Below, piece by piece: positions 6,030-28,963 of a stretch of 60,600 bases of DNA. Each line of letters starts with the position of its first letter. Position 1 is the first letter of the stretch. The notes beneath the pieces are model-generated. The model saw nothing but the letters and a program-made list of their open reading frames with translations, ran no database searches and was not told where the DNA came from. Position numbers and translations under genes: made by a program. The stretch is taken from positions 1 through 60,600 of the IMG/VR virus record IMGVR_UViG_3300036791_000464. One strand, written 5' to 3'. This DNA comes from a virus. Lineage: Duplodnaviria > Caudoviricetes.

Positions 6030-6040
6030 TTTGCTCCCTC

Positions 6041-8797: not shown

Positions 8798-8807
8798 GGC
8801 TAGTGGC

Positions 8808-10642: not shown

Positions 10643-10649
10643 CACTCTC

Positions 10650-10976: not shown

Positions 10977-12091
10977 TTGGTCTCGCCGGTGTAGATTTCG
11001 TGAGCCTCGTACGGCTGCCATCCCGTACTCCCTAGCTCGCGCATGGTCTGCCACTCCGCACCGATTCCGTGAAGTTCGCACATGTCGAAACACCAACATC
11101 CAGGGCAAGTAAACTGACCATTATTCTTGTAGGCGCTCTCGGGTGGCGCTCCATCCTCCTGTCTTCCCTCGGCGCGAACGCGCTCCATATCCGCGAACTC
11201 GGACAAGACCTGACGACGCGCAGCTTCGCGCTCTGCGAAATCGCGGTAAATCGTGGTGCGGGTGAAGTACGGCGCTGGCTGCTTTTTGGATACCGATCCA
11301 TCCTTGTTGAGCCGGAATCCGCCTTCATCGACCGGCCGCTCGTCCTTGAACGCCTTACGCAGATGGTTGTACAGCATACCGGCGGGGCGCTCGTTCTTCT
11401 TCAGCAATCCCCGTTCGTAGATGAAGTCGAGTCCCCAAGTCCAGTACGCGCTCGCTTGCGAGTCCAAACTAAGGTACATCACCTGGATCGAGGCGGCAGT
11501 TTTGTGGTCTACGATATGGAGCTTCTTAGTGACGCGGTTCCGCCAGATCCCGTCCATGATCCCGGTATACCAGAACCATGGTTCGTTGAATGAGGATCCC
11601 GCCGGGAATCCGGCGCTGGGCTTATAGACGAGTTGCTTGAACGGTACCTCGGTGACGAGCACTTCCCACTCATCGTCTTTACCGTAGTGCTCGATGTAGT
11701 GGTTGAGCATGGCCTCGCCGAGATCGCCCGCCTCTGCCCACTTCTCATCCGCCTCTAGGTCGTCAACCCGGAAGCCGAACTCACCCTGTCGTTTAGCTTC
11801 GGCCTCGTAGTGTTTGGCGAAGCTCTTAGCGGGATGCGGCCCGCGCCGGATCCCCTTGATGTAGTAGTCCGCGAGCGCGAGATGGATCAGTGAGCCGAAC
11901 CGAAGTGGCGGGATATCGGTCTTCGGCTTGAGAGTTTCCTCAAACTCCATCCACCACTTCCATCGACAGCGTTTGAACGTACCTCGCTCCGAAGTACGCA
12001 ACATGGGGAGACCGTCGCGCAGTTGACGGGCAACGACGGTCTCCCGATGATGCGCAAGATTCGCGCGGTGTCTAGTTCGAACGACTGTCAT
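10973..12091 (-). CDS. PD-(D/E)XK (RecB/Cas4-like) exonuclease
   Basis: FKRCRWKW, FGSLIH, GIMDG...IVDHKT, Q...Y, terminal Cys cluster. Confidence 0.85.
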   Translation of the reverse strand: MTVVRTRHRANLAHHRETVVARQLRDGLPMLRTSERGTFKRCRWKWWMEFEETLKPKTDIPPLRFGSLIHLALADYYIKGIRRGPHPAKSFAKHYEAEAKRQGEFGFRVDDLEADEKWAEAGDLGEAMLNHYIEHYGKDDEWEVLVTEVPFKQLVYKPSAGFPAGSSFNEPWFWYTGIMDGIWRNRVTKKLHIVDHKTAASIQVMYLSLDSQASAYWTWGLDFIYERGLLKKNERPAGMLYNHLRKAFKDERPVDEGGFRLNKDGSVSKKQPAPYFTRTTIYRDFAEREAARRQVLSEFADMERVRAEGRQEDGAPPESAYKNNGQFTCPGCWCFDMCELHGIGAEWQTMRELGSTGWQPYEAHEIYTGETK

Positions 12092-12252
12092 GGTGTCACT
12101 TTGTACCAGAGAACCGTGTTCTCTCCGGCCAGATACTTGCGGTATGTACCCGCTTTTCCTTCAAACTTACTAATCTGACTCGGCTTCAACTTGCCGAAAT
12201 GAACCTTCCCGCTCGCATCACACCAACGATCCTCTCCATCCTTTGAGGACAT
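12088..12252 (-). CDS. Small hypothetical protein
   Basis: GAAGGAGAG RBS before ATG; 4-bp overlap with the exonuclease start. Confidence 0.55.
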   Translation of the reverse strand: MSSKDGEDRWCDASGKVHFGKLKPSQISKFEGKAGTYRKYLAGENTVLWYKVTP

Positions 12253-12349
12253 GTACTCTCCTTCCTGTTGGGTTCCGTCTAACCCCCGGCGCTGCCGGTG
12301 CCCCATGTTTCGGAAGGAGACGATGGGACACCGGCGCGCCTCGGAGAGA

Positions 12350-12378
12350 AGCCTACCGGAAACCAAAGCCGCCGTCTA
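12350..12378 (-). promoter_or_regulatory. Sigma70/SigA-type promoter for the replication operon
   Basis: TAGACG-17 nt-TAGGCT; same -35 hexamer as the promoter at 16576-16604. Confidence 0.6.
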
Positions 12379-12607
12379 GGGCGAAAAAACCCGGAAATAG
12401 CGGGTTGTTTCGCGCATGACTGCGCCTACAGACTGGTTTGAGTTGGAGTTCAAGCCCCTACGCGCGCGAGGTATATTCCCGGCCGCGCGCGTGGTGCCCT
12501 CTTGCGAACCCTCCGGGTACGCGCATGCACGCGCGGACTCGGGCGCGCGAGAGAGGGATGGCAGTCCGGGCGCGAAAGATATCTCGCGCGAGGATTTGAG
12601 CGGGTTT

Positions 12608-12829
12608 TCATACGCAATCACATTCATCTTTACAATCTCTATCATGTGCATAATGACACTGATTACACATTTCGAGATAGTCTTCTATGTTGTGCGTATA
12701 GACATGCATTCGAATGTTTGCCCAGACGGTTTTTCCCTGCTCTCCGCATATTTTACATGTTCCTGTTTTTGGATAGTTATCACGCAGAAACTTATGAATA
12801 GCCTTGACTTTAGGATCAGTGGTTGGCAT
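12608..12829 (-). CDS. Minimal HNH-like protein
   Basis: TGTCKICG...TVWANI...DYLEMCNQCH; AT-rich island. Confidence 0.65.
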   Translation of the reverse strand: MPTTDPKVKAIHKFLRDNYPKTGTCKICGEQGKTVWANIRMHVYTHNIEDYLEMCNQCHYAHDRDCKDECDCV

Positions 12830-12889
12830 ATAAACCTCCATCGAGAGAGAGCGGTTTTCACACCGCTCTCTCTCATTAGGTACCCCATT

Positions 12890-13117
12890 TTATTCGTTGA
12901 ACCACGTTCCCATCGCCTTGAGTTCGGCGGAGCTTAGCTCTTCAGGCGCGTCTTCAGATGCGTCAACACGCCTTTTCTTACCCTTGTTCTCCTTCTCTTC
13001 CAGTTTCTCACGTGCTTGTTTCGCGTCTACGACGATCTTGCCGACCGCAGCCATCAGGCCGATTCCGGCTCCGAACATAAACGCGAGCACTCCCATTACT
13101 TGGATCAGAGTGTTCAT
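12890..13117 (-). CDS. Small membrane protein
   Basis: N-terminal hydrophobic helix and charged tail. Confidence 0.6.
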   Translation of the reverse strand: MNTLIQVMGVLAFMFGAGIGLMAAVGKIVVDAKQAREKLEEKENKGKKRRVDASEDAPEELSSAELKAMGTWFNE

Positions 13118-14934
13118 TTCGCTACTTTCTTGAGGATCTGGCGTCGCAGATCGAGCACGTTCTTGTTGATGTCGATCTTCTCGTCGTTGACGTCCTTGAT
13201 GTACTGTTCTATCGTGCCTTTGCTCCGATAGACGAGGGCCGTCACTTGATGATTTCTCGTCGTATCGACCGCACGATCAGTTACCTGAGTCTGGTCATCG
13301 GGGTTCCAAGTCTCATCGAGTATGTGAACATCAGTCGCTCGATTCAACGTGATCCCGACACCGGCCGCAGCAGTCACCAAGACCGCTACACGAACCTTAC
13401 CGGCCTGGAAATCAGCCATGATTCGGTTGCGATCCTTCATGTGAACTGCACCGGAGATGATCTCGCACGGGATCCCGTAGTTGTTCAGATGCCGGTAGAT
13501 CATCTCTGCGGTCTCGCGGAACTGGCTGGCGATAATCGCTTGCTCATCGCCATCCGGATCCTCCGGATCAATCCCGCGCTCTTCAAGGTTCTCAAGCAAA
13601 TACGGGATCTTGCCAGACTCTTCGGTAGCCTTGACCTTCATCTCGACATGGCCAGTTTCCTCATCTACATTCAGAACCTCGACCGAGCACATGTGGTTCG
13701 CGAACTGCTTGAGCCGTGTGTACTCAGCTAAGATCGAGGTAGCAGAGAGATGGTATTCATCGATGCGAACCTCAGCCGCAGCAGCGAACGTATCATATTG
13801 CTTCCGCTGTTTCGTCGTCATGTCGCACCAGACATCGATCCACTGCGTCTCAGGTAGTTGCGGCAGGACTTCTGAACGAAGCCGCCGAACCGCATGAGGT
13901 GCTAGAGCCTGGTAGAACGCATCTTCGCGACCGGGGATGATATTGCCGATGCTCTTGTACTGTCCCCAGGTGTTCTCGATTACCAGCCACTGATAAGCCC
14001 AACGCCACTTCGACGTGAACTTCTCAGGTTCTAGCCAATTGAGAGCGCCCCAGAGCTTGATCGGCTTACCACCCATCGGTGTACCGCTCAGAGCGTACTT
14101 CCGTTGAGCCTTGATCGAGCGAGCTACCTTTGGAAACTCATTCTTCGGCTCGGGCAATCCCGTCTTGTGGAACTCGTCGATAGTGAAAGAGTTCCACAAC
14201 TTGATCTTCGGGAAGTTGCCCAGTCTGATCATATGCGCAGTAGTGACGAACCAGAACGGCTTGCCATCCTTGAGACAGCGTTCCACGGTACGTTCCGCTT
14301 CTGCTTTCTCACGTTGCGTCAAGTCGCCTGAGAACGTCACTACTGTGTGATCAGTCCATCGCTCGATCTCCATCCGCCAGACGCTGTCAAGCGTAGACTT
14401 CGGCGCGACGACCAGGTGAGGGCCAATCTCCAAGTCAGACTCGTAGAGTGACCCGATCACCTCAGTCGTCTTGCCTAGTCTCGGCTCCAACAGATTCAGA
14501 CAGCTGGTTGTCGCCATGAACTTCACGTCGGCCCGCTGGTAGGGACGGAACCACTTAGCAAGCTTGGGGAGCTTCTTGTAGAGCTTCATCTCCTTCAGTG
14601 GCGAGTCGTCTGCCACCGCCAGAGTCTTCAACTCTGTCTCCTTCTTCACTTGCCTCCGACCCCACGCCTTGATTGCGTCTCCGAGTTGGAGTCCGTCTCC
14701 GAACTCTTCACGAAGTCGCCTCATGACGATGAGGTCGAGTGGTAGCGTCCAGAGCGGCCCGCCGTTCTGTGCATTGACGAACCTGGCTCCGAGAGGCTTT
14801 AGCCTGTTCATCGCCAGTACATGCTCTTCACTGTACCGGAAATGGACTCCGCAGCGCTCACCGTCTTCTGTGAGTTCCACGAATGCATCCATGATGTTAC
14901 CTGCGACGGTTGGTTGATCGCCGGGCGGTCTCAT
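13114..14934 (-). CDS. SNF2-family helicase
   Basis: RPYQ Q-motif, EPRLGKT, IDEFH, LSGTP, GVGITL, WNP...Q; start uncertain. Confidence 0.9.
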   Translation of the reverse strand: MRPPGDQPTVAGNIMDAFVELTEDGERCGVHFRYSEEHVLAMNRLKPLGARFVNAQNGGPLWTLPLDLIVMRRLREEFGDGLQLGDAIKAWGRRQVKKETELKTLAVADDSPLKEMKLYKKLPKLAKWFRPYQRADVKFMATTSCLNLLEPRLGKTTEVIGSLYESDLEIGPHLVVAPKSTLDSVWRMEIERWTDHTVVTFSGDLTQREKAEAERTVERCLKDGKPFWFVTTAHMIRLGNFPKIKLWNSFTIDEFHKTGLPEPKNEFPKVARSIKAQRKYALSGTPMGGKPIKLWGALNWLEPEKFTSKWRWAYQWLVIENTWGQYKSIGNIIPGREDAFYQALAPHAVRRLRSEVLPQLPETQWIDVWCDMTTKQRKQYDTFAAAAEVRIDEYHLSATSILAEYTRLKQFANHMCSVEVLNVDEETGHVEMKVKATEESGKIPYLLENLEERGIDPEDPDGDEQAIIASQFRETAEMIYRHLNNYGIPCEIISGAVHMKDRNRIMADFQAGKVRVAVLVTAAAGVGITLNRATDVHILDETWNPDDQTQVTDRAVDTTRNHQVTALVYRSKGTIEQYIKDVNDEKIDINKNVLDLRRQILKKVAK

Positions 14935-15214
14935 TACTTTTGCTTCTCTTTCTGCCTCTGTAGATTGCGTAGACCTCACATCCTCGCGAGACGAACTCCC
15001 AGTCATGTTCTGGTTCTGGGATGAGCACCTGGCGACGATGCAAGTTGGACTGGAGCTTATACGCCTGTGCTGGATTCTCACAAGTGTAGATCAGCGCCCA
15101 GTTACCAGGATTGCCAACGAGTGGCATGAGCTGGTTGGCCCATCGCCCCACCAATCCTTGTTTCGGTCTCGGTGGCTCGTTGACGAACTCTACTTTTTGT
15201 TCTGTGTCGTTCAT
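14897..15214 (-). CDS. Hypothetical protein
   Basis: AAGGAGGGTACTA-ATG RBS. Confidence 0.65.
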   Translation of the reverse strand: MNDTEQKVEFVNEPPRPKQGLVGRWANQLMPLVGNPGNWALIYTCENPAQAYKLQSNLHRRQVLIPEPEHDWEFVSRGCEVYAIYRGRKRSKSNETARRSTNRRR

Positions 15215-15241
15215 TAGTACCCTCCTTATCTTGACGGCCAA

Positions 15242-15410
15242 AAGCACGCTCGGAGTTGAACCGAGAATACCCATCGTGCTTGGAAGATTCGGGGGATCCG
15301 GGGAGGGTACCAGTCCACCCGGATCCCCCACGCCGGCAGCGCGTTATCGACTAACGGCGCGCGCCAGCGAGCTTTGTAGGAGCTTGCGTAATGGGATGCA
15401 AGCCTCTATC
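15242..15410 (-). ncRNA. Structured intergenic RNA: hairpins, anti-RBS loop hairpin and tRNA-like minihelix
   Basis: 7-bp stem with a canonical T-arm (15242-15281); 12-bp stem at 15291-15329; further hairpins up to 15410. Confidence 0.55.
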
Positions 15411-15992
15411 CTAGCCGATCTCCTTCCGCGCCGGTACTCGACCAGTGCGGAAGCAATAGGGACAGCTTCGTCCGACAATCACAATCGGTTTGATCTGCTG
15501 CTGCTTTTGAACTCTGAATGGTCTCATCCATTCTCTCTCTGCGACCAAAAACGGACGGTCACCTGTCGTTCCTGGACAGTCTTTGTAGCCGCATCGGACG
15601 ATCAAGAAGCCGGGAAAGTCTTGGCTCCTGGTCGCCTGGTACCGAGGCAGCTTGCTTACGAAGTCGTTCAAGGTACCCTCCTTGGTTTGAAGCCCGGTAT
15701 GGACTCCGACCGCCCAGACGCTACTCTGGACGGCCGCAGTTCATCTGCCGGTACGTCTTGGATCGTTCAGACGGATGTCAGCGGCGGCCAACGTTCTGTA
15801 CCCGCCTGGGTCTGTGTACACCTGAACAAGAGACTTCTGACGACGCAGGATGTAACCGTTCTTGTCGAACGTACCTGCGGGTAGAAGTTGCTTGAAGGAG
15901 ACACATATGAATGGCCCGATCACAAATGGTTCGAGACCTTCCATCTTGACGACAACCCAGATCCGGCGACCAGGGCGCAGCATGTCTTCCAC
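15411..15992 (-). CDS. Two small hypothetical genes (15411-15671, Cys-containing; 15741-15992)
   Basis: ORF track; GGAGGGTACC RBS before the TTG at 15671. Confidence 0.55.
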
Positions 15993-16033
15993 TGGCCCAT
16001 GGTCGCCGGTCTTGGCTGCCTCTACGACCGCCG

Positions 16034-16534
16034 TCAGGAAGGGTTGTTGCCCCTACCTGCCTGGCGCTGAGCGCGCGTGCGTGAACGACGGGGCGTGGCC
16101 GCTGCGGTTGCCCGCTTGCCAGTGGTCGTCTTCGATCCTGCCGGACGACCACGACCGCGCCGGGGCGTCTCCTCCTCATCGCCGTTGTCCTTCTTGCTGC
16201 GGACTCCGGAGATGACCGAGTTGGCTGCCGCCTCCTCACCGCCGAAGAGATCCTTGACGGTGGCGACGGACTCGCCAACGCGAGCCGCGATCAGTTCCCA
16301 GCGGTTGCCATCGACGTTGCGGAGCTTCTTCACGCTCGCCGCCGTTGCCGGCTGCTCGCTGTAGATTCCCGCATCGACCTGGGCACGCGCCCAGGGCATC
16401 GCGCCGATGTTGCCGACGGTGACGCCCAACTCGCGCGCCGCCTCGGACTGACCCATCCCAGACTTGGCCAACCTCACGAGCTTCTCGTGGGTGACCGGCT
16501 GGGTGTTCTCGGTGTTACGCCTGTTGCGAGGCAT
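16034..16534 (-). CDS. Putative DNA-binding regulator (HTH plus AT-hook-like basic tail)
   Basis: GMGQSEAARELGVT HTH-like segment; RRGRGRP; own promoter. Confidence 0.65.
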   Translation of the reverse strand: MPRNRRNTENTQPVTHEKLVRLAKSGMGQSEAARELGVTVGNIGAMPWARAQVDAGIYSEQPATAASVKKLRNVDGNRWELIAARVGESVATVKDLFGGEEAAANSVISGVRSKKDNGDEEETPRRGRGRPAGSKTTTGKRATAAATPRRSRTRAQRQAGRGNNPS

Positions 16535-16575
16535 AATGCTCCCTCCTATTACGGTTGATGGTACCCAGTACGCCG

Positions 16576-16604
16576 ATTATAGCGCATGGGGTGGTACCCG
16601 TCTA
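16576..16604 (-). promoter_or_regulatory. SigA-type promoter
   Basis: TAGACG-17 nt-TATAAT, with GGTACC in the spacer and again downstream. Confidence 0.7.
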
Positions 16605-16685
16605 GTCATGATTACCAGGGACTTTTGACGGTGGAGTCGTAATGACCTCCGTGCCCCCAGCCTTTTACCGCTGGGGACGCGCGGG

Positions 16686-16976
16686 TCACCGCAACCTAAT
16701 GCACTTGAAGTTCGGCTTGATCTTCGCGTTCAAGTAGACGCCGCTCGATTCCGAATACGCGCATCTGACTGCGCGTTGCCGGCTGACACCGACGTAGACG
16801 TAACGAGCGCCGCCTTTGAACTCGATGAACATCAGCGGTTGGCCGCCCTTTTCTGGCCAGCCGATGAATCGAATATTCGAGCTATCAATCATCCGGATGA
16901 CGCAAGGAACTATTCCTTCAGGAGTGGGGATGTCCAGCAGCTGAGTTTTAGGCCATCCATCTTTATTGAGAGGCAT
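16686..16976 (-). CDS. KTSC-domain protein
   Basis: DSSNIRFIGW...IEFKGGARYVYVGV...SSGVYLNAKIK. Confidence 0.75.
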   Translation of the reverse strand: MPLNKDGWPKTQLLDIPTPEGIVPCVIRMIDSSNIRFIGWPEKGGQPLMFIEFKGGARYVYVGVSRQRAVRCAYSESSGVYLNAKIKPNFKCIRLR

Positions 16977-17388
16977 CTCTCTGCTCTCTGTCGAGTTTAT
17001 CGTGACAAGGTTTGCAGACTTCGATCCAGTCAGTCGGATCTTCCCACCTGTACTCAAGAGAGAGATTGTGAAACTCAGTTCCTCGTCTCACTCTAGTTCT
17101 GAGATTGGGCAGACGAACTACTCTCGATGGTGGTGTCTTACCACAGCGTTCACAAGTTCCCGTATATGGCTTCAAATCTCTGAGACGTTTATGTTTCAGA
17201 TCATATCCGGGATCAGGATTCCATCGTGGACTCTTTTCGCCTTTCTTGTTCCACATTCCGTTTCCATCACCCTTGTTCGCTTTGCTAATGGCAGCGCGAG
17301 TTTCTGGCGATTGTTCTTTGCCCTTATGAGCCTCGCTCATTTTGCGACGATGCTCATCAGAGAACTTCTTTCCTTTGGGCCATGGCAT
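16963..17388 (-). CDS. NUMOD3 HNH-like endonuclease
   Basis: Two NUMOD3-like repeats (SDEHRRKMSEAHKG; SPETRAAISKANKG); CERCG...EVCKPCH. Confidence 0.75.
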   Translation of the reverse strand: MPWPKGKKFSDEHRRKMSEAHKGKEQSPETRAAISKANKGDGNGMWNKKGEKSPRWNPDPGYDLKHKRLRDLKPYTGTCERCGKTPPSRVVRLPNLRTRVRRGTEFHNLSLEYRWEDPTDWIEVCKPCHDKLDREQRDASQ

Positions 17389-17930
17389 TACTGATCGCCT
17401 CTGCACACTGGCCCTATTCCTAGTTGGCGAGAAGTCTCGTCAGTCAAAGTCCTGCCGCAGACATAGCAGCGGCCGATCTCGCGCCCGAACCTGGGGCCAG
17501 CATCCGGATCCGCTTTGATCGCGTCCAGGACACGCTTGATCTCCGAGATGTTACCAATCGGGTAACGAGTATCGGATGCCCACACATCGACGAACACCTT
17601 GGAGTGTCCGTTCTTGACGCTGTAGAACATCAGCGTGCCGTCATCCTTCTCGACGGCATAGCGTCCGTCTTCAACGCCAGCGAGCGCGACATTCGTCTTC
17701 TTCTTCCACGGCAACGCCACCAGCGTCTCGATGACAGTGCTGGCGCGCATCTTCGGAATAGTTGCGAAGTCGGCGGTTTGGAGCCAGTTCTGCTGCTCCT
17801 CGGTGAGAGAGTCAAGATCCTTACCTTGAGCAAGAGCATCGAGGTAAGCGACCTGCTTCTCATTAGCCAACGGGCCGGTGGTGGGCCGGAACTGCTCCGG
17901 AACCTCCGACCTTTTGGTCGTTCTAGGCAT
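17388..17930 (-). CDS. DUF6011-like zinc-finger protein
   Basis: C-terminal RCYVCGRTLTDETSRQLGIGPVC. Confidence 0.7.
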   Translation of the reverse strand: MPRTTKRSEVPEQFRPTTGPLANEKQVAYLDALAQGKDLDSLTEEQQNWLQTADFATIPKMRASTVIETLVALPWKKKTNVALAGVEDGRYAVEKDDGTLMFYSVKNGHSKVFVDVWASDTRYPIGNISEIKRVLDAIKADPDAGPRFGREIGRCYVCGRTLTDETSRQLGIGPVCRGDQ

Positions 17931-17946
17931 GGTACCCTCCTTGACT

Positions 17947-20900
17947 GTGCTCGGTTATCCGAACACGAGGCCACCCGTCATTACACGGGTGACTTCCTGC
18001 TCAGTTGACCGGATCGACCTCAAGAATCTCGCGGTCGTCAGACCAATCGACATCCGTACCGTCGAAGTCTTCGAACTCCGCAGCATCTTTGGCGTCGTCT
18101 TCGTCTTCGGCATAGATGTAGATCGTGACTATGCCAGTGACCTGCATCTTGACTTTGTACTCTTGCTCGTCAGGCACGTTAGTCCCTTCCGAAGCCAAGA
18201 GGCAGATCCGCGCCCTCAGCTTCATCGATTGCTCTCTCAGTGTCGCCCCCAAGGAGCCGTTGCTGCTACGCCGACACTACTTGTTCAGCGACTTGCCACT
18301 GCTTCTTACACCCTTGCTCGGATTGACGCTGATGTTCGCTTTGGCGCCAGCCGAGCTTCCGGCCGTCCTGGCTCCCATGTCGATCTTCCGACTTGCGCGA
18401 ACAACCGTTCCGCCGCGAGTTGCTCCTGAGATCGGGAACTCTGCGTACATGAACTCGCGGTTGATCTTGACCTGATCACGCAGAGCGATCTCCAGACCGG
18501 AGCCAACCGACTTCACTGACTCGTTCCTCATAGCGTGCAACCGCTGTCCAACTTCGGCTGCGAATCCTGCCGAGAAGTTGCGCCTGAACGTCTTCCAGTG
18601 ATTGTAGTTCTGCGGGACACCGCGCACCTTGCACTCCTTGCGATAGTACCGCAGCATCGAGTCGCGAGCTTTCGTGCGCTCCATGTCTGTGTTGAACCCA
18701 GCGGCCTGCATCGCCTCGCCGGTCTCATCCCAGCCGATGCCAGCCTCGCGGAACAGCACGAGGTTATCGAACATCGACTTGAGTGGATCGGCTTTCGGAT
18801 GCGTAGACTCGACCAACTGAGTCATCAGCGACGAGAACAGCAGAGTCATGTAGCCGAGGTCAGCTTCGGTTCCAATAACCGGAACCTTACAGCTTTCCCA
18901 TGTTCTACGAGTATGACTGTAGTGCTGCTTGTGGATGACGATGACGCAGTTCGCGTGCCGAGCCACATCTAGGAACAGAGACCAAAGTGCGTCGCTGATC
19001 TCCGGGAATGGCCCGGACTCAAACGCGAAGCTGTAGTCGAAGTCGTGGATGATTGGCGTCCGCCCGTCAATACGACCGGCATCGTGCTGCGCCAACTCCC
19101 AAAGCTCGACATTGTACTTCATCATCAACTCGTCGGCCTTGGCCATGAAGACTGCGCGCTCACCTTCGAACTCGGTGCTCTCAGCCTTGGCCAAGAGTCC
19201 CTGGATCTTGGAGAGCAGGTCGTCTTTCTGGATCGTGCTCATCTGGTACCCTCCTTTTGGGGTAAGACACTATGTACCATACATAATGTCTGGGCCACCC
19301 GGTGGTGTTCCGGGTGACCGAGGCATTACACCTGGCCAAGCTCCCAGATCGTCACAGGATTGTGACAGGCAGGAGCATTGTGATACGACATCAGATCCAT
19401 GCCTTCCCAGATCAGTCCGTAGGCGATGCCGCCGTTGAACTGATTGTTATACTGGACGATCTTCACGCACCGCATCGAGTGCGGATTGCCCGGCTCATCC
19501 CAGCCGTCATCTGCAATAACTTGATCGACGACCTCGCGACTATTGACGGTAGTCATTACGTCCTCTCGTTCAGGATACCATTTTCGATCAGAAATGTCTT
19601 GTAGATCGGGAAGACGTTATTGTATGTCTTCTTCCCAATCTCGACATTGTGTTTCTTCAGGATCACGACAGCCTGCTTCAGCGGTGACAACCGCCAGCGT
19701 GGGCCATCCGGGTGCTCGACTATCATCTTCATCTTGAAGTAGACCTGAAGATAGACGAACGCTCTGATCTCATGAGGCTGGTCGAGGATGAACCCTTCGC
19801 CACTCATGACTCATACTCCTGTAGTTTGACGACGAGTGCATCGTGCTTCTCGGCTAGGTACAGCAGAGCCGAGCGTACATCTTGCAACGCTCCAAGGATG
19901 ATCTCAGCCTCGTCCCAGTTCAGACTTGAGCTAGGACTCTCGGCCATATCCGAGATCGAGCCGATCACGCCATCAAGGTTATTGATGTCGCTTACGACCG
20001 ACGCAGGAATGTTCCGGATGGTGAACTCTTCATCCTCTCCATTCATGTGCTCATCGCTCCGTGCTCGTCGATCCCACCGATGATAGGATTGCCAGTCGTG
20101 TACTTGATCTGTACGGACATATAACCTTCCGGCAGACCAAGACCGCCTCTCTGGACGATGATCTCCTCGACCGAATGACCCTCAGACAGATCGACAAGCT
20201 TACGCGCTTGCGCCATCGTAAGGTGGTCGAGTGCTTGTGGCGTCATTTTGATGACGACCATACGGTACCCTCCTTTTGGTTTAGAGCCTACACCACGCAG
20301 ACTCCGACCGTCTCTCCATGAGAGACGGCCGCAACCTAGTTGGTGTCCTTCTTCCATGCTCGGTCGCTTGCGCGCTTCTGGGAACGCCTGGCGGCTTTCT
20401 CAGCCTTGCGCATAGACGACTTGAGGTTGCCTGAGCCATGCAGGATGAACTTACCGCGCTTCATCGAAGCGGCTCGCATTCAGGGCAGAACTCACGATGG
20501 GCATCGTCGTGCAGCCCTTGCATGTGAGCATCCGCCATGTCTGCGATCTCGTCGTCCATGTTTCTTGCACTTGGGACGATCTCTGTTGAGCCGAAGTGGT
20601 GCTCATAGCTGCCGGCTTGGGCATGAATGAACACACCAGGCTTCCAGCCCATCCGCTCGCACTTTCGCTTCATTGCTGCGACACTGTCATCGAACTGCTC
20701 GACGGTGCCACCGACCATGACGAATCCGACGTACTTGTCGCCGTTTCCCCAAGTGTCTGTGATGCCGAACGTCGAGGCCATCGGCCTCTTGGCGATCCTC
20801 ATCTTCCAGGGTTTCCGAGCTTCGCTGCTGATGCAGGCGACAACCTCGGTATCCGGATTGGGATCGATTTGAACGCGGTTACTCATTGGGTACCCTCCTT

Positions 20901-23900
20901 TCGTACATGTTCGGATCACCCGAACACGAGGCCCCACCCAGTGGATGGGACTTCCTGCTCAGCTGATGACCTTGCTGTTGTTGGAGAGAGCGATATTGAA
21001 GAGCGGAACGAACTTGTACTTTTCCACCGGGCTGGCGACGATCCAGACCATCTTCTTCTTGGTGCTGGTGCCGTCCTTATGGTGGATTTGGCTCATCTTC
21101 TCTTGCTTCTCAAGCTTGAGCTGGACGCCATCGATCTCGATGGTCTTCTTGCCGGCCAACCAGGCTGAGCGGATCAACTCAACTGAAGACTTATCAGTCG
21201 CCATCAGTCAACCTTCTTCGACCAATTGCTGTTGTCGTCGTTCTCGGGCTCATACTTGTGGAGCATCGCTTCGATCTCTGCGACTACTCCCTCATGGAAC
21301 GCGGTCTCATAGACATCGAGCAGATGCGGCTCGCCATCGTCGCCGTAGCGGTCGAGTTCTTCCATGCAGACTTGTTCCCAAGTGGGATCGTCTGCCCATT
21401 CGCCGCTGACTCGCGGCATCGGAAGCATGTCCATGATCTCAGGATCGATGTTCTCCATACCTTCCATGATTCTCTTGAGGAACTCGTACGGATTGTCCGT
21501 ATTCCCATCGACCATCCAGGTTGCGGCGTTTTTGCCGTCCTGCTCACCGCGCTCGGCGATGATCGCGTCGTCTTTGTCCTCGGACGTGTCTGCGATCCTG
21601 CCTGACAACTCTTCGTGATGCTGATGGTACGCAAAGAGGAGATGCTGGTGAAGAATCGAGATGTCCGAGATGCTGGCGAAGTGCAAGAAGTTCTGTACAG
21701 CAACGCCAACTTCCTTCGATGAGACAATAAAGCTGCCGGCATCGTGGTCGATTGCGTGAACAACTCGGCCATCATCCATGACTTCTTCGCTGTAGATTGC
21801 GAAGACCTTCATTGGTACCCTCCTTTGTTCGGCCGTGCTTGGCTTATCCGAGCACGAGGCCCAGCGCGCGATGCTTTGCGTGCTGGACTTCCTACTCAGC
21901 TAGTCCGCGTCGAACTTAGTAATGTAGAGTTGCTTCTTGATTCCGAAGAACTCCATCATCTCTGCCGGAGCGCGCTTGGCGTACAGTTGGCGCTTCGTCC
22001 AGATTGTATAGCCGGTGCCGAAGCCGGACGGCATGAAGTTGTACGGCTGTCCGCTCAGCAACGTCTTGCTCACCTTTGTTCTTGTCTCTGGCGTTACCGA
22101 GAACGGAATGCCCGGAACAGAAGTTGAGACAGCGATGCGCTTCAGTGACTCTGGAATCCGCTCCGTGATGTAGCGGTGGATCGCTTCGTTGGCTTCGTCA
22201 CTTGGACTCACGTACGGCTTCGGTGTGAACTTCAACGGATTGCTGATGTAGAAGCTGTCATCGACGCCGTAGCGGTCGTATGAGCGACGGATCTTGTCCG
22301 GGGCCATGAAGCTAACATGACCATCGGCCAAGAAGTAGTCGTTGCGATCACCGGAGAAGTTGATCTCGATAATCGTCCAAGGAGCTTTCATCTGGGTGAG
22401 GTACAAGCTTTTGAACTTCTTCTTTGTCCAATCGTTGACCTCTTCCCTGACTTCACTTACAAAGCCCTTTGGAACCACGATTTCACGGATCAACGTATCC
22501 GGCTTCGGAACAACCGGCTTGATGTTCTTAGCCGTCATTCCGTCACCTGGTCGGCCGTGACCCAGAGTTGACCTTTGCCGACGCCGAGCGTTGTGTACTG
22601 CCGGTAGCCGCGCCAATGTCGCGCGCAGCCATTCGCCCACGGGCCCATACTCGTTTTGAAGTCGTACGGGCCAGGAACGAACTCGTCATCTTCCATCTGG
22701 CAGAAGTTGCAGTTGGGAATGCGATCGACAAGAATGACCTGATGGGGGATGAGCTTGAGCTTAGTCATGCTAGTCCACCACCCATCCGTCATCGAGAAGA
22801 GCATCGACGTTGTCGTACGTCTTCAGCTTGCCACCACCAGGCAGTTCGCCAAAGATCGTCGAGTTGCTCTGGATGGTCAACTCTGCGTTCTCATCGATCA
22901 TCTGCATCCCAGCCGCTAGCACTGCCGTCTCGATGCCTACGTCTTGCGACTTAGCGCGACGCTTGATCGGGAGCAGCAGATGCGGCCACCTGTATGGATC
23001 GAGGATCATCTCACGATGCTCCTCGCGTGTATGACCTGTCCAATCCTTTGGACTCGTCATTTTGGTACCCTCCTTTTGGTTTTGTACTAGGATCTCCTTT
23101 TGGACTGATGTCCGGCATGGGACAGTGATGTTCTGTCCCTGCCGCGCATCAGTGTGACAAGAAGAACAAGATTGCGTCGATGACCTCGCGCGCTTCACCG
23201 ATGTTGTCGCTGTTGATGATCGCCATCCTGGGATTGCTTTTGCCATCCAAGATCGGCTTGTCCCAGTTGAAGACGTTGTGGTTCCGCTGGAAGTGGAACT
23301 CCATCGTCAGTTGAGATGTGTATGGCGTTGACTCTTGCTCGATGAAGTGGATAACGCCGCAGTTGCTGGCGCTCCATTCCGCGACCAACTCGTAATCCAA
23401 GCTGTTGGCGGATGACTCCAGATCCTCTATGAACTTCTGCTGGAATGTTTTCATTGGGTACCCTCCTTGTTTTCATGCACCATGTACCCAAGCTTATCTC
23501 GGGCACAAGGCCGCTCGCCGTGTTGCTTGTTGGTGAGCGACCTTCTGCTCGCTACGCCTGCTTGGCGGCTTGGAGCATCGCAACACCGAGCGAACCAAGG
23601 TTGCTCGTTGTGCGGATCTTGACCACGATCTTCTTCTTGGTCATTGCGGTACCCTCCTTGGGGTTTGTTCTATGCGTACTCGGTTGAGCACGAGACCGCA
23701 TCCCGTGTTGCTGGTGGGATGCGATTTCCTACTCAGTTGCCTGTTTGTTCCTTTGATTCGCGCAGAATGACGATTCCCTTCTGCCTTGCTGCGTGGCGCT
23801 CGTTGGCGAACTCGTCGTTGATGAACGCCAACTTCTCCCAGACGTTGACGACACTACCCTCTAGTGCCTTGAGGGCATTGGCGACGACGCAAGCGAGGTA

Positions 23901-24396
23901 CAACTTGTTCTCCAACTCGATGGCGATGCCGGCTGCGTCCGCGATGGCGTCGTCCAAAGTCTTGTTCTCTGGCTTGGGGTCGAAGCGCAGCGTCTCCTTG
24001 TTGTAGCCAAGTTGAGCATTCCATTCCTTGGCCACTTCGGGGTAGTCGCCATCCTCTTCGTAGATCCCATCGGACTCGCCGCCCCAATCCATTCCGAGGT
24101 CAGCAGCGACCCACATAGCCGCGACGAGTGGGATGTTCTTGTAGCCGTAGGCCGTTGGGAACCATCCCATCTCTTCGTTGAACCGCTCGGTCTCTTCCTT
24201 GGTTTTGACCTCGCGGCCATCGCCAATGAACTCGACCTTGGACAATGTGTCCAAGCAGCGGTTGACGAAGGACATCGCTTCGCTATTGAAGTCGTATCTC
24301 ATTTCGGTACCCTCCTTTGGGTTTTGCTTTTGTTTCCGTACCGATTGGCACGAGGCCATCGAGCGTAATGCTTTTTGCTCGATGACTTCCTACCAT
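17947..24396 (-). repeat. Repeated intergenic tandem-hairpin element (6 copies)
   Basis: GYAGGAAGTC-hairpin-GGCCTC-GTGY..hairpin at about 17947, 20907, 21835, 23483, 23676 and 24338. Confidence 0.85.
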
Positions 24397-25707
24397 CAGC
24401 GGCGGATTGTGAATCCGATGATCGTCGCGAACACAATCGGGATTGTGGAAACAATCGCGATTGCTGACTGATTGACTGTTGCGCTCGCTGCTGCGTTGAG
24501 CATGATGAGCGCGAGTCCGATGAGCGCGAGTCCGATGAGGACGAGCCCGATGCTTCTCGTTTGGGCGGTCATCGCTTGGCCGTTCTTCTCGCCTTGAGAT
24601 CGGCGTAGAACTTCGCATCGGATTCTGTCTTGATGCGCTTGATCTCCTTGCGCGCTTCCTTGATCTTTCGCAGCGTTTGGCGGTAGTTCGTGATGACTTC
24701 GTTGGCCATGTTCTCATGGAGCCAGCCAAGGCCGTTGCCGTCGTTGGCCTCTTCCTTGGCCTTGATGAACTCCTCGATGCGGTTCTTGATGACCGTCTCG
24801 ATTTGGATCAGATCCAAAGCGTCGAGGACAAGTTCGGTTTCGATGTACTCTGATTGTGCCACGGGTTGGTACCCTCCTTGTGGTTTGGTCGGGGTATCCG
24901 ACCGGCGCGGGATGCGCTACTCGCTCACATCCCCGCCGCTCGAAAGCCGTCCATGTTCCGAACACTTCTTGCCGGTTATCGCCGTTCTCGGACATCTGTT
25001 GCCTCCCTTGATAATCGTTACAAGGTAGGACGTGTTGTCCTTCCGCTTCTTGCGGAATGTGATCTTCTTGCCGTTCGAGATGTGGTCGCATTGGCGAAGC
25101 GGGAAGGTGTTTGGTGATTTTGCCTTCCGCCCAAGTCCGCGCGTCTCAAACTCGGATAGTCCCGAGTTGCGGAAATGGTTTCTTGCCATTTCCTTGTTTC
25201 GACGACGTTGTTCTCTCGTCTTATGATCCATTGCTGTTTCCCTTCCCTTTGGGCGGGCGGGGTTATCCTCGCCTCATCTAGCGTCGTCGCGGTTGGAACG
25301 TTGGACGGCGCTCGATGAGGCGACGGGGTTTGTCTTCCCCGCCGCCCCGCCGTAAGGAGGGGGTACCATTATATAGTTATCAAGCTACGATGGGGATTTG
25401 CGATTGCCCCGTTCTCATTCCTACCGTTGCCCCGGAGAGCTTGCCGATTTCTCTACTCGGTACCGTCCGCCGACGCTAGTTCGGGGGATCGGTCTCTACG
25501 GGCGTGGACGCGACGGGCGAACCATTGAGGATACTCTCCCGGACTCTTGTCTATATCCTTGAGGATTTCTCTATTAGGATCGCCCAAATGCCGCCGTCCC
25601 TCAAGTTGTTGCCTCGCAGCCATACCGGTTACCATCTCCTCGATTCGCTCGTCCGTATCGCGCGCCCGCCGGATCGCTCTCGCGACCCGGCCTCCGCTTT
25701 GTCCCAT
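18001..25707 (-). other. Early-region array of small hypothetical genes (e.g. 19326-19556, 19556-19807, 19804-20046, 20043-20261, 20461-20886, 20959-21204, 21204-21812, 21900-22538, 22535-22768, 22770-23060, 23149-23454, 23733-24302, 24569-24862, 24917-25231, 25453-25707)
   Basis: Co-oriented, tightly packed ORFs, many preceded by AAGGAGGGTACC. Confidence 0.75.
18277..19242 (-). CDS. DUF2786-domain protein
   Basis: N-terminal LLSKIQGLLAKAEST...KADELMMKY. Confidence 0.75.
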   Translation of the reverse strand: MSTIQKDDLLSKIQGLLAKAESTEFEGERAVFMAKADELMMKYNVELWELAQHDAGRIDGRTPIIHDFDYSFAFESGPFPEISDALWSLFLDVARHANCVIVIHKQHYSHTRRTWESCKVPVIGTEADLGYMTLLFSSLMTQLVESTHPKADPLKSMFDNLVLFREAGIGWDETGEAMQAAGFNTDMERTKARDSMLRYYRKECKVRGVPQNYNHWKTFRRNFSAGFAAEVGQRLHAMRNESVKSVGSGLEIALRDQVKINREFMYAEFPISGATRGGTVVRASRKIDMGARTAGSSAGAKANISVNPSKGVRSSGKSLNK

Positions 25708-25899
25708 TGTCCGTTCTAGCTCCTTGAACGTTGGGCCGGACTCGGATGAGAAAACGAGCGCGACTCATCCTAGCTCGCGCTCGTTCAAATCCCGGATTTT
25801 CAAAGTTCGCCCGCTCCGTCGTCGGCCGCCGGAGCGGGGGACGGGAGCGGCTATCGAGGTACCCCTCTATTCTACCGGAGCGCGGTTGGTGCCGTAGGG

Positions 25900-26580
25900 T
25901 CGGTTAGGGTGGGAAATAGTTGGGTATTTAGTTGGGGATCTCCTTTTGTTAGTATTTGGTTAGAGTTTTATGTAGTATTTTGTTAGAGTTTTATGTAGGC
26001 TCTCTTGATTTTTGAAATGGTGTTTCGTTTTTGGTGCTTTTTTGTGTTGTTTTTATGTGCGTGGTTTGGATTTGTGTTTGGAGATGCGGCTCGGGCTTGA
26101 GTTGGAGAAAATGGGCGGAACCGGCAAAATTGAGATGGACTTTTGTTTTGAACCTCCTTAGGGACATTCATCGGGTTGTTTTTGCTCAAAAACGTGCTGA
26201 TTTGAGTTGTTAGAACACGTGAAAGTACGCTTGTCTTGAGTTGTGAAACGCTTACAAGATGTTTTGTGTTGAAAAGTAGTTTTTAGGAGATCCTCAACTC
26301 ATGACATCTACAACATGCACCATGTTTTCAGGCTTAGCTTTGAATTGACTTGGGCATGCACCAACACACATGCAACATGCACCAACTTTTTGAGCTTTGT
26401 ATTGAGTTGAGTTGGGTTGAGTTGAATTGTTTTGAGTTGGAACTGTCTTGAGTTGGAATGGTTTGAGCGCCGAACAATACAAGCGCGCAAGACAATTCCA
26501 AGACAAAACAAGTTCAAGACAAAACAATTTCAAGTTCAAACAATTCGACCTCAAATCAATCCTAAACTCCCTAACTAAAC
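25900..26580. repeat. AT-rich non-coding repeat block (candidate origin or genome-end region)
   Basis: 23-bp tandem repeat, many TTGAGTTG copies, CATGCACCA x3, CAAGACAA x3, T/G to A/C skew flip near 26470. Confidence 0.7.
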
Positions 26581-26673
26581 TCTAAGGCGGCCCTAAGGTT
26601 CGGCGCGCTACGATAGTCGTATCGACTAACGGAAAGGGCGCCCGGCGGATCCGGCGCGCCCGGAAAGGTACTA

Positions 26674-27171
26674 ATCGCTACCTACGACCTCCCTAAGCTA
26701 AAGGCTCTCGCCGCCGCCGAGTACGACCGCGACGCGGCCGACGCCGGTACGACGTTCCCGTACTCTCCTTCGCGCGCGGTCTCCGCTATCGCGAAGAAAA
26801 CGAACCTCCGGAAGCCGTACCTTCGAGGTATCGTCGATCCGATCTACTTCCGGGCGAACGGTCTCGCCGCTCCGCTCGATGTCTCCTCTCGCGCGGCGGA
26901 CGCTGCGCCTACCGTCGCGTCGATCCGCGCGGCCGTCGCGAAGCGTCGCGACGCGGGCGGAACCCTCGGACGGTGGGATACGCTCTCCGCGTCTCTCTCC
27001 GCCGCGCTCGGCCGTCGCGTCTCCGAAGCCGCGACGAAGGGGTACTACGACGCGGCGCGCGGCGAGGGAGCCGCGACGGAGGGAGCGTCGTATACCGGAC
27101 GCGGAACCCGGATCGGCGCGCCGCTCTCGCGCGAAAGCGCGACGGCCGAGGTCGATTCGACGCTCGGCTAG
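26674..27171 (+). CDS. Hypothetical protein with putative ATC start in a CA/TG-depleted block (missed by the ORF track)
   Basis: 165 sense codons ending at TAG 27169-71; GAAAGGTACTA RBS-like sequence before ATC; upstream in-frame stop at 26614; downstream hairpin. Confidence 0.7.
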   Translation: MATYDLPKLKALAAAEYDRDAADAGTTFPYSPSRAVSAIAKKTNLRKPYLRGIVDPIYFRANGLAAPLDVSSRAADAAPTVASIRAAVAKRRDAGGTLGRWDTLSASLSAALGRRVSEAATKGYYDAARGEGAATEGASYTGRGTRIGAPLSRESATAEVDSTLG

Positions 27172-27176
27172 CCGCC

Positions 27177-27217
27177 CGCCGGAGCGCCCGCCGGAATCCT
27201 CCGGCGGGACTCCGGCG
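27177..27217 (+). terminator. GC-rich hairpin after the ATC-start ORF
   Basis: cgccggag..cccgccgga-atcc-tccggcggg..ctccggcg. Confidence 0.45.
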
Positions 27218-27514
27218 TTGCGGTGCTGGGGTTTTGCACGGCAATCAACTTTCATCCATATCGCACAAACTGCGGCGCCCACAAAAAACCATCGTACCGG
27301 GTCGGGCGCGCCCCTACGCGCGCGAACCTATCGCCAACTACTATATCGCCGCCGCGACCCTCCCCAACCCCTCGCGCGTACGAGTCCGCGCATGCGCCTA
27401 CGGAAACCGTTTCACCGGGTCGGGCGCGCGCGTAAGGGTAGACGCATGCGCGAGCGCGACACCGGAGCAACTATCGGTTGTCGCGGGCGGGCGCGCTATA
27501 GTAGTTCGCGCCTA

Positions 27515-27543
27515 TAGACTTTCAAACCGAAATCGGCTATACT
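27515..27543 (+). promoter_or_regulatory. SigA-type promoter
   Basis: TAGACT-17 nt-TATACT upstream of the gene at 27606. Confidence 0.7.
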
Positions 27544-27605
27544 CGACCGACCATCCCCGTAAGGGGATGATTTCTCCGCAAACAAACAAGCTAAAGGAGA
27601 GCACA

Positions 27606-28010
27606 ATGCCAAGGACACGCAGAACAACCCCCACCCAGACCACCGCAGCCAAGCAGCCCAGCCAAGAGAACTTACATTACTTGGCAGGAGTCTTTGAGGC
27701 AACAAGGACTCTAGCGGGTGTAAATGTAAACTCTGCTGTCGCCATCTCGCGTTCATCAGACTGGGCCAAGTTCATGGAGCAGACTTTTGGGCAACAGGGT
27801 TCCGCTTCAAGCTTTGTCGGTGGGAAGAGTGGAAGGACTTGGTGGGGTTGGTTCCCAAGTCTTCAAAGACGGCTCGATCTCATCATCATGCTGCAGAAGG
27901 CAGATGTAGCTCGCGCAACAACATCAGATGAGTTCGAGAAGTTCAAGAACCAGATTCAAAAAGCCATCAACAACCAGCAGGTTGATGAGAATCTCCCGGA
28001 TAACGGATGA
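27606..28010 (+). CDS. Hypothetical protein (CG-poor gene)
   Basis: AAAGGAGAG RBS, ATG at 27606; short hairpin after the stop. Confidence 0.75.
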   Translation: MPRTRRTTPTQTTAAKQPSQENLHYLAGVFEATRTLAGVNVNSAVAISRSSDWAKFMEQTFGQQGSASSFVGGKSGRTWWGWFPSLQRRLDLIIMLQKADVARATTSDEFEKFKNQIQKAINNQQVDENLPDNG

Positions 28011-28187
28011 ACCCGCTAATAGCGGGATTTCATTACTAGCGCCCAGCGCCGGTCTCTAGTAGAATCGAGCTACGCTCCGGGCCTGGGGCCAGCGGATGTT
28101 TGTTAGCCGCACCCATCCGCTGGCGGCACGTGGGGTGCCGTCCAGGCCCGGAGCGCCAACAGCCAAACACCAAAAGGACAAACAACC

Positions 28188-28963
28188 ATGGGAGAGATTG
28201 CCAAGTCCCTCTTGATGAAGATGTGCGCAGAGGCCAGCGTGGAAGCTGTCAACGACCTTCTTCATACCAGCCAGCTGCTGGGTGGGCTTGCCAAGGCCAT
28301 CATGACCGAGCCAGACGCGGAAGGAATCGTCAACCCGGAGCAGCTGATTGAAGCCGCAGCCCGCTGCATAGATGCCATCGAGGTAATCGTGGAGGCGTGC
28401 CGGCCGCGAGATCATGACCTCAGCGAATGGGAGCAGACCGACCTGCACAACGACATGATGGATGTCAGAGGCAAACTGGACGACCTTCGCAGCCAACTGT
28501 TCAAGATTCCAAAGGAGGACAGCTAGCAAAATGGACGTAGACTTCTTCCACCGCACAAACACAGGCGCTGCCAGCGAGCAAGCAGAGACAGCCTTGAGTG
28601 TTGTCCGGGTCGAGACCACAACAATGTCCGACGACGGGCAACAGTTCCGCTTGATGATGCTTGACGCGGACGACAGCTTTGACTTCGTTGTCCAGTGGCC
28701 GGACGGCGAGCGCGAGATCGTCTGGAGCTTGGCCAGAGAGCGCGAGGGGCAGTCATGACGCAAGATTTAGTCATCGGCATCCTCTTGGCCGTTTTGGTCG
28801 TGGCAATCTGGCTGGGCCTGCGAAGGAATCCATGATACCTGTACTATGTTCACGGTGCTGGCGTCGAGCGAAGTTCAACGTGGCGATGCTCGTCTGGTAC
28901 TGCCCGATCTGCAACATGTCCATTACAGCTGAGGAAGTCTATGAAGGAATGAACAAGCGATGA
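28188..28963 (+). CDS. Small hypothetical genes (28188-28526, 28531-28758, a small TM peptide and a zinc-finger peptide ending at 28963)
   Basis: RBSs and coupled start/stop overlaps. Confidence 0.55.

Follow-up and report, generated by a model that had tools for sequence, protein, structure and literature searches.

What marks the boundaries between the early genes of a phage, and is the mark read in DNA or in RNA? The question is raised by IMG/VR record IMGVR_UViG_3300036791_000464, a complete, 60,600-bp virus record bounded by direct terminal repeats, analyzed here over its whole length (the window). Between genes on the minus strand of its early region, a structured element recurs: a 5′ flank, two tandem hairpins, a linker and a ribosome-binding site (RBS) motif, which we call SAS by likeness to the start-associated sequence of actinobacteriophages. 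The original prediction named six copies and took the element for an undescribed cis-acting RNA. All six are present. The element is best explained as a boundary mark between translational units, carried as a cis-acting RNA by the early polycistronic transcript, and every copy reaches from one unit's stop codon to the start codon of its successor. We hold it very probable that the element is a sense-strand RNA with a post-transcriptional action at unit boundaries; our best guess as to its action is messenger RNA punctuation, whether by processing or by ribosome-driven refolding.

Tandem hairpins between early genes

A covariance model was built from 12 seed copies and searched against the window and 11 related loci (141 kb). 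It recovers the six named copies, SAS included in their coordinates, and gives 86 matches at E ≤ 1, of which 52 reach E ≤ 1e-6, the low-scoring ones owing much of their score to the RBS motif; more lie in two further viral records (G005 and G006), and the genomes carry 11–16 copies each. The covariation supposed at the outset is strong in the tandem-hairpin fold (fold A). In the 52-copy alignment, 96.5% of 927 cells are paired as against 66.2% in shuffles (0 of 500 reach the observed value), changes on both sides occur in 18 of 19 pairs, and the covariation score is 0.75 versus 0.20, although the copies are related, so that shuffle controls overstate significance, and the alignment was fitted to fold A. 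Controls in which pairing partners were moved by 1–3 columns are 34–45% paired. For an alignment-free test, inner segments were cut by conserved anchors alone: at least five consecutive end pairs are present in 29 of the 37 distinct segments, versus 0.5% of shuffles. The inner stems are exactly 6 bp long in 20 of the 37, and their six-nucleotide arms are distinct in 34; by this test, the claim that the inner stems are unrelated in sequence yet pair is confirmed.

At the base of hairpin 1, an A·C mismatch is kept in 35 of the 52 copies, and the variant GAAAUC/GGUCUC at 23676 retains it, as had been noted. Subfamilies change the basal sequence while keeping the pairs: GUC/GGC becomes GUG/CGC, GGAAGUC/GGCCUC becomes GGCGCU/AGCGC, a GGGGUUG/CUUCCC form occurs, and G005 has a GC(A)/(U)GC form. 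The imperfect pairs also reveal the strand. In fold A, G·U and U·G cells number 85 against 12 A·C and C·A (44 against 12 without an invariant U·G), and in a flank helix described below 53 G·U stand against 7 A·C. This excess places the fold on the transcribed sense-strand RNA, not on its complement.

The same excess bears on the proposal that the element is a DNA-level cassette boundary, a recombination site of PeSL or attC type that shuffles early genes. Gene content lends this proposal some appeal. The elements divide units of 1–4 genes, and genes within a unit overlap or abut. Among five genomes compared, the promoter-proximal small genes mostly lack a homologue at E ≤ 1e-5, and the distal genes (those for DUF2786 and DUF6011 proteins, with their neighbors) are syntenic. 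The conserved element, its flanks near-identical, thus adjoins unrelated genes, as reported for SAS, and its combination of a conserved, mismatched base with a variable terminal hairpin resembles attC. The part of the original prediction that likened it to a PeSL cassette boundary stands as far as the highly variable genes between copies are concerned, but falls on the absence of any PeSL-type promoter at the copies. Moreover, no integrase or recombinase family was found among 59 open reading frames (ORFs) scanned against Pfam, and synteny also breaks without an element, for example between overlapping genes at 21204, so that breakpoints are not confined to elements. Gene shuffling may instead be a by-product of repeated conserved sequence, and with the fold placed on sense-strand RNA we consider a DNA-level boundary highly improbable.

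Could the element simply end or shield transcripts? Over 75 nt, the GC-rich hairpins of the 11 copies in the window (five beyond the original six, see below) all reach −25 to −39 kcal/mol, and each of the 11 75-nt segments upstream of SAS folds better than all 200 of its dinucleotide shuffles (z −3.7 to −5.9). However, no T-tract follows any copy and a terminator scan places no site at the elements, in agreement with the earlier statement that a U-tail is missing and that these are not intrinsic terminators. U-tract-less terminators or attenuators, or anti-Rho insulators, might nonetheless modulate read-through of the 10-kb early operon, and strong GC-rich hairpins whose start coincides with the stop codon, with little RNA left naked, would suit such a role. 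We regard it as quite improbable, as the U-tract is absent and a mere insulator needs no conserved sequence, conserved mismatches or second competing helix. Promoter-like hexamers are absent from every copy; across 14500–28500 a scan finds 5 sites versus 5.8 expected, none within an element.

All 11 copies in the window lie on the minus strand. The highest-scoring members of family 1 are those at 17931–18003 (81.2 bits) and 20889–20961 (78.4 bits), in both of which the upstream stop UGA forms the first three bases, and at 21814–21898 (73.9 bits), where the stop, UAG, falls just upstream and UGAGUAGG is still kept. The copy at 23648–23735 (47.3 bits; z −5.17) is the GAAAUC/GGUCUC basal-stem variant, whereas that at 23457–23551 (38.9 bits; z −3.99) carries AAGGUC/GGCCUU and is fully paired at its base. 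At 24306–24396 (34.6 bits, E 1.6e-7; z −4.99), the order of flank, hairpin 1, hairpin 2, A/C-rich linker and SAS, AAGGAGGGUACC, is followed by an ATG 3 nt past SAS. Five more divergent two-hairpin copies, missed by the original prediction, precede the remaining exact SAS sites. Two constitute family 2, in which UGCGGCCGUC-hairpin-GACGGUCGGAGUC-hairpin 2 preserves the same architecture and SAS (20264–20338, 33.5 bits, z −3.92; 15672–15743, 23.6 bits, E 2.6e-4, z −4.53). The others comprise two tandem hairpins of other sequence with linker and SAS at 19245–19325 (26.7 bits; z −4.03), two hairpins, linker, SAS and a GTG start at 24868–24927 (26.9 bits; z −3.66), and hairpins with a long linker and SAS at 23064–23150 (15.9 bits, E 0.05, mostly from SAS; z −5.94). 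The composite AGGAAGTC-N8-38-GGCCTCGTG occurs four times in the window versus 0 expected, a count that 0 of 100 shuffles reach. Alone, the 9-mer GGCCTCGTG is at chance level (21 matches with at most one mismatch versus 21.6 expected), so the enrichment is confined to the composite.

At gathering thresholds, Rfam 15 has no match in the window, C4 antisense RNA, ribozymes and tRNA included. Permissive searching yields only Rhino_CRE (27 bits against a threshold of 45) and, in a relative, whalefall-1 (22 against 37), both of which we take as chance; the element, as the original prediction supposed, matches no family. A hammerhead-like reading of CUGAG...GAAGUC was rejected, there being no stem between the motifs and no Rfam match.

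Relatives of the element are found elsewhere. Pattern scanning located it in at least four other IMG/VR records (G001–G004), each with 8–10 RBS motifs that share a strand and fall within about 10 kb, and G005 and G006 were reached via a conserved early leader. With relatives carrying 8–15 SAS on one strand, the search of viral and metagenome sequences places the element in at least six further viral records and, from at least nine metagenome loci of which two duplicate G001, in at least seven distinct contigs. True copies are a minority of the pattern matches. In the viral scan, 5 of the 120 matches listed have the 12-mer AAGGAGGGTACC within 80 nt, and two more are true copies with an RBS variant; in the metagenome scan 12 of the 122 matches listed are true, most raw matches being chance or unrelated. 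Dozens of the latter (for example L134, L142, L143 and L152, from one data set) are an unrelated AT-rich repeat (…GGCCTTGTATTTAGGGCTCCATAGTGTAGGGAGGGTACC…) that matches by chance. Among bacterial and archaeal genomes, represented by one genome per species, 64 pattern matches include no prophage copy with the flank and several SAS.

A competing helix at the stop codon

How might such an RNA act at a unit boundary? Minimum-energy folds repeatedly pair the 5′ flank, UGAGYA, with URYUCR in the 5′ arm of hairpin 2. This competing helix, which usually includes the stop codon, is new here and was missed by the original prediction. Because the covariance model left the flank unpaired, counting flank-helix pairs on the same alignment amounts to an unfitted test: 95.1% of 284 cells are paired versus 84.4% in shuffles (0 of 500 reach this), double changes affect 5 of 6 pairs (29 cells versus 7.7 expected), and slid controls pair in 27–51% of cells. 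In family 1, the flank Y faces the arm R as C-G in 24 copies, U-G in 11, U-A in 9 and C-A in 2 (Fisher p 0.005). In the resulting fold B, hairpin 1 grows to a duplex of about 19 stacked positions, made up of 6+2+3+6 pairs with conserved G·G and A·C mismatches and shorter than two helical turns. The flank helix excludes hairpin 2, and both folds covary. They are near-isoenergetic, with a median ΔΔG(B−A) of −1.4 kcal/mol (ensemble energies with each fold enforced) and fold B favored in 25 of 41 copies.

The upstream stop codon occupies flank positions 1–3 in 38 of 50 assignable copies (35 of them UGA), the other 12 having it at −7 to +4; by rough gene calls, TGA ends 53 of 103 genes over the whole window. 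Such a register is explained better by a ribosome-driven switch without cleavage than by processing. In a switch of this kind, the terminating ribosome would melt fold B and hairpin 2 would form, such that the ribosome or a new 30S subunit is handed to SAS 20–35 nt on, or upstream translation is reported. Two exclusive, covarying and near-isoenergetic folds are what a switch would employ, and the RBS window opens slightly more with fold A (0.54) than with fold B (0.51; Wilcoxon p 0.004). On the other hand, accessibility of the Shine–Dalgarno (SD) sequence hardly changes (0.53 versus 0.49, p 0.07; 0.50 versus 0.43 with the first 14 nt masked), which leaves the switch with no evident read-out. 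Even copies whose true stop lies a few bases upstream (for example at 21898) keep UGAGYA, an indication that the flank is constrained by pairing and not by termination, and genome compactness alone could place the stop codon where it is. We place a ribosome-driven switch on the unlikely side. The specific notion that the switch hides the SD was rejected, predicted SD accessibility being nearly equal in both folds.

Our tentative preference, held as something short of probable, is for endonucleolytic processing of the T7 RNase III-site type at the element, with fold B as the substrate, as this would account for all three helices at once and for the conserved mismatches. Fold B would form first, and be the ground state, since transcription yields the flank, hairpin 1 and the 5′ arm of hairpin 2 ahead of the 3′ arm. 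Its lower helix would then be cut by an endonuclease, or melted by a terminating ribosome; once opened, it would free URYUCR and allow hairpin 2 to refold beside hairpin 1. The upstream unit would thereby end in a protective 3′ hairpin 1, while the downstream unit would have hairpin 2 at its head as 5′ protection, then an unstructured leader and a very strong RBS. In that RBS, the extra GGUACC could serve as an address common to all early units, probably read by a hairpin-displayed complement at 15291–15329.

Besides the relatedness of the aligned copies, several points weigh against processing by RNase III. Fold B, at 17 pairs and two mismatches, falls at the low end of what the bacterial enzyme needs. 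Bacterial RNase III also needs less conserved sequence than GYAGGAAGUC and GGCCUCGUR, the conservation of which suggests a different specific factor. Among the early genes, none was recognized as coding for a nuclease or RNA-binding protein (30 ORFs compared with PHROGs and 37 with Pfam, nearly all without a hit), and a ribosome-driven switch accounts at least equally well for the fixed stop-codon position.

A specific factor might use the element as a binding platform, with a phage or host protein recognizing the base of hairpin 1 and its mismatches and controlling translation or, in the manner of N and put, RNA polymerase processivity. Conservation does extend past structural need (GYAGGAAGUC...GGCCUCGUR, the frequent A·C mismatch and a variable stem of constant 6 bp), and the element is kept across seven viral records amid unrelated neighboring genes. 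Nevertheless, the PHROGs and Pfam comparisons supply no candidate protein, and subfamilies swap the whole basal sequence with pairs intact (GGCGCU/AGCGC, GGGGUUG/CUUCCC and family 2), favoring shape over sequence. The antiterminator form of a platform is further at odds with 11–16 copies per genome and no terminators between genes. We thus find a binding platform unlikely, while recognizing that the best explanation and its rivals are not all mutually exclusive.

The ribosome-binding motif and its complement

If the element punctuates the early transcript, does its RBS motif carry meaning beyond initiation? With at most one mismatch, AAGGAGGGTACC occurs 12 times in the window versus 0.15 expected, in every case on the minus strand between 15216 and 24879, and a start codon follows 0–3 nt past AAGGAGGGUACC in 50 of 52 copies. 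A SAS variant, AAGGAGGGUACU, at 15216–15227 (minus strand) precedes the gene that leads into the SNF2-helicase and replication block. The window and G001–G005 each hold exactly one SAS 10-mer in reverse orientation. Read on the early strand, this reverse copy is GGUACCCUCC, displayed in the loop of a 12–14-bp hairpin; the loop is invariant, while the stem varies in sequence with its pairs kept, 7 stem pairs showing double changes among five genomes. In the window, the anti-SAS hairpin, overlooked in the original prediction, spans 15291–15329 (minus strand), with a 12-bp stem and the loop GGUACCCU(CC), an exact complement of the SAS core GGAGGGUACC, and the predicted duplex with SAS is worth −20.3 kcal/mol. 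It sits at the distal end of the early cluster, between the last small-gene unit and the replication block. Counterparts lie in related loci L128 (about 13200–13260, plus strand), L129 (about 2340–2400, minus), L130 (about 13290–13350, plus), L131 (about 1150–1210, minus) and L330 (G005 22150–22480).

Directly after the anti-SAS hairpin, at 15242–15281 (minus strand), comes a tRNA-like minihelix consisting of a 7-bp acceptor-like stem and a T-arm-like CUCGG-UUCAACU-CCGAG. It has no D or anticodon arm and is called by neither ARAGORN nor Rfam; ARAGORN reports no tRNA or tmRNA in the window or in four relatives. A T-arm-like structure follows the hairpin in four of six genomes (the window, G002, G003 and G004, not G001 or G005), and the counterpart in G003 is longer and almost completely cloverleaf-like, though likewise uncalled by ARAGORN and Rfam. 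The minihelix is a possible RNase P handle.

At the other end of the cluster, the presumed early promoter has a −10 TATAAT followed by the leader GGUACCCCCUCCUUACGG (25350–25373, minus strand), which resembles an anti-SD or anti-SAS sequence. The leader GGTACCCCCTCCTTACGG, directly after TATAAT or a near match, is invariant in the window, G001, G003 and G004, with one extra T in G002, and could form a duplex with the RBS motif, interrupted by a 2-nt bulge. Its counterparts are at 1553–1576 in L128, about 10990–11014 in L129, about 1871–1894 in L130 and about 10792–10815 in L131. The best promoter-like site of the region is a different one, TAGACG-17-TATAAT (10/12) at 16560–16604 on the minus strand, flanked by GGGTACC both upstream and downstream in the window and G004; the downstream GGTACC is retained in G002 and G001. 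In the window as a whole, GGTACC occurs 35 times versus about 18 expected, 18 of these at 15306–25858, and it may have a role at the DNA level.

These parts could be assembled into an RNA-only regulon, the boldest reading and one we hold as less likely than not. SAS, preceded by the bistable hairpin with its embedded stop codon, would be the address on every early unit, and one anti-SAS hairpin RNA would, on accumulating, pair with all 11–16 sites and shut off early translation together. Under this joint scheme, the anti-SAS RNA at 15291–15329 would head the next temporal block, the tRNA-like processing handle would follow it, and the anti-SD leader would open the early transcript. If true, this regulon logic would also explain the SAS of Cluster K mycobacteriophages, unexplained since 2011.

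A cultured phage with SAS provides a comparison. In Adephagia (Cluster K1, JF704105), the SAS consensus with at most two mismatches occurs 16 times forward and once in reverse, matching its authors' report. The reverse copy is found inside the 430 bp that separate genes 92 and 93. On the transcribed strand it makes up the 10-nt loop, CCUCCUAUCC, of a hairpin with about 19 bp, at about 58,640–58,725 of the record (38640–38725 of locus L251); the surrounding 141 nt fold at −70 kcal/mol (z −4.1). This hairpin region is found in 137 phage records, mostly unannotated, and a second conserved hairpin stands just upstream. The loop is kept in 6 of 8 aligned genomes. Ekdilam has the loop CCUCCUUCCCC with SAS unchanged and the loop of Keshu is wholly different, so that co-variation of SAS and anti-SAS within Cluster K fails on these two, which weighs against strict pairing. 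Late transcription in Adephagia appears to begin between genes 92 and 93 (PMC11373665). The hairpin goes unmentioned in the passages searched, the words hairpin, antisense and opposite not occurring in PMC12699233 and small RNA and sRNA not occurring in PMC11373665, although the supplementary site figures may show the setting of the reverse site.

Where does the window itself belong? Megablast finds no near-identical cultured phage. By DnaE, the nearest cultured phages are those of Microbacterium and Mycobacterium, at about 43% amino acid identity; DnaE is split in hits of about 56 kb, and Cluster EF phages are among the closest cultured relatives. From these relationships, from the absence of any integrase or repressor family among the 59 ORFs scanned and from the listing of soil metagenome DNA runs only, we take the window to be a lytic phage of an actinobacterium from soil, related to actinobacteriophages. 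One Cluster EF phage of Microbacterium, AnnaSerena, has 9 forward SAS in 18000–56707 and one more 10-mer match in 1–18100. It holds no credible reverse SAS, its single 10-mer with one mismatch sitting inside the DnaE gene, and the one intergenic gap examined has a U-tailed hairpin and promoter-like hexamers.

The minus strand of the window, from about 25,370 down to 330, encodes numerous small orphan genes and then replication genes (DUF2786, DUF6011, SNF2 helicase, PD-(D/E)XK nuclease, an MCM/primase-like protein and a DnaE-type polymerase), and the plus strand from about 28,000 encodes structural genes (Mu-like portal, capsid, tape measure and baseplate J). An ORF at 16963–17406 (minus strand) is NUMOD3- or homing-endonuclease-like and has no counterpart in four related genomes; it is probably a mobile insertion within the conserved part of the early arm. 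Between the divergent arms, 26290–26600 is AT-rich with iteron-like short repeats (a CAACTCAA / TTGTCTTG series in opposite orientations), and the adjoining 26600–27500 is oddly GC-rich and CGCG-rich, with long ORFs on both strands that match neither Pfam nor PHROGs. Together, 26290–27500 may be an origin or control region.

Likeness to known systems

In actinobacteriophages, SAS is a hyper-conserved RBS motif and ESAS adds a conserved upstream extension before non-structural genes (PMC3203893, PMC7302621). Their function is called unknown or ill-defined, and still so in papers of 2024 and 2025 (PMC3203893, PMC7302621, PMC11373665, PMC12699233). Where the sources describe ESAS, it comprises 17-bp imperfect inverted repeats and SigA-like hexamers, with no support from RNA pairing, and the ESAS of Cluster K is read there as a DNA site or SigA-like promoter (PMC3203893, PMC11373665).

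The likeness to the present element is considerable. Each has an asymmetric 12–13-nt motif with an SD core, conserved past its 16S complementarity, with 10–19 copies in SAS phages; each keeps a single orientation and, confined to non-structural genes, stands a few nucleotides before their starts in intergenic gaps of unusual length; and each has a conserved upstream extension with inverted repeats beside unrelated genes. Even the single opposite-orientation SAS of K1 phages, which is not at a gene start, has its equal in the window and in G001–G005. There are also differences. The motif here is AAGGAGGGTACC as against GGGATAGGAGCCC and GGGAAAGGACCCC, a likeness of design and not of homologous sequence, and the extension is a covarying RNA fold that starts at the stop codon, adopts two competing conformations and lacks promoter-like hexamers. 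A promoter reading, as proposed for the ESAS of Adephagia, was rejected on the last of these points. The element is therefore a SAS/ESAS member by design, not by sequence, and departs from the published description of ESAS. The original claim of an undescribed cis-acting RNA holds for the structure, which covaries, lies on the sense strand and is undescribed in Rfam and in the literature searched; the arrangement as a whole is of a kind already known, as DNA motifs, from SAS/ESAS, which the original prediction did not name.

Since 2011, hundreds of actinobacteriophage genomes have been listed as carrying SAS/ESAS motifs. In the literature searched, this is the first case in which the "extended" part of SAS is demonstrably an RNA structure, with a competing stop-codon helix. 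The lineage also points to a concrete partner for SAS, a hairpin-displayed complement present as well in Adephagia, a cultivable model on M. smegmatis, and a descriptive puzzle thereby becomes open to direct experiments. More practically, a compact natural intercistronic module of 3′ hairpin, 5′ hairpin, unstructured leader and strong RBS could serve operon design in Actinobacteria.

Other phage systems resemble parts of the arrangement. HK022 put comprises two stem-loops, found once downstream of each early promoter, that suppress downstream terminators. The suggestion of a put-like antiterminator fits poorly: two stem-loops are indeed present, but in 11–16 intergenic copies and with no terminator-like sites on the early strand. 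T4 PeSL elements join an early promoter to a stem-loop, and integron attC sites work with a partner integrase and fold in the non-coding strand. Both are, like the present element, repeated structured intergenic elements beside highly variable small genes; the present element differs in having no promoter, no integrase among the ORFs scanned and a fold in sense-strand RNA.

For the anti-SAS hairpin only, the nearest likeness is to the C4 RNA of P1 and P7 and the CI RNA of P4, antisense immunity RNAs that are RNase P-processed from the operon they control. In each case, a phage RNA loop is complementary to RBS regions of its own transcripts, and the tRNA-like structure that follows the hairpin in four of six genomes could recruit RNase P. 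There is no sequence or Rfam match to C4 or CI, the targets here are 11–16 RBS and not one or two, and pairing and processing are predictions.

Of the three candidates put forward in the original prediction, the T7-like processing site is the viable one by analogy. T7 RNase III sites are imperfect hairpins, their duplex about two helical turns long, with internal mismatches between the cistrons of a long early transcript made by host polymerase, and their cleavage leaves a stabilizing 3′ hairpin on the upstream message. The present element shares the intercistronic placement in one long early transcript and the imperfect, internally mismatched hairpins, and would likewise leave a 3′ hairpin upstream. 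Its duplex is shorter, at about 19 positions, its cleavage is a proposal, and it differs further in the competition of a second hairpin for the 3′ strand, in having the stop codon within the helix and in its fusion to a conserved RBS. On these analogies, the element appears to function most like an intercistronic processing and initiation module.

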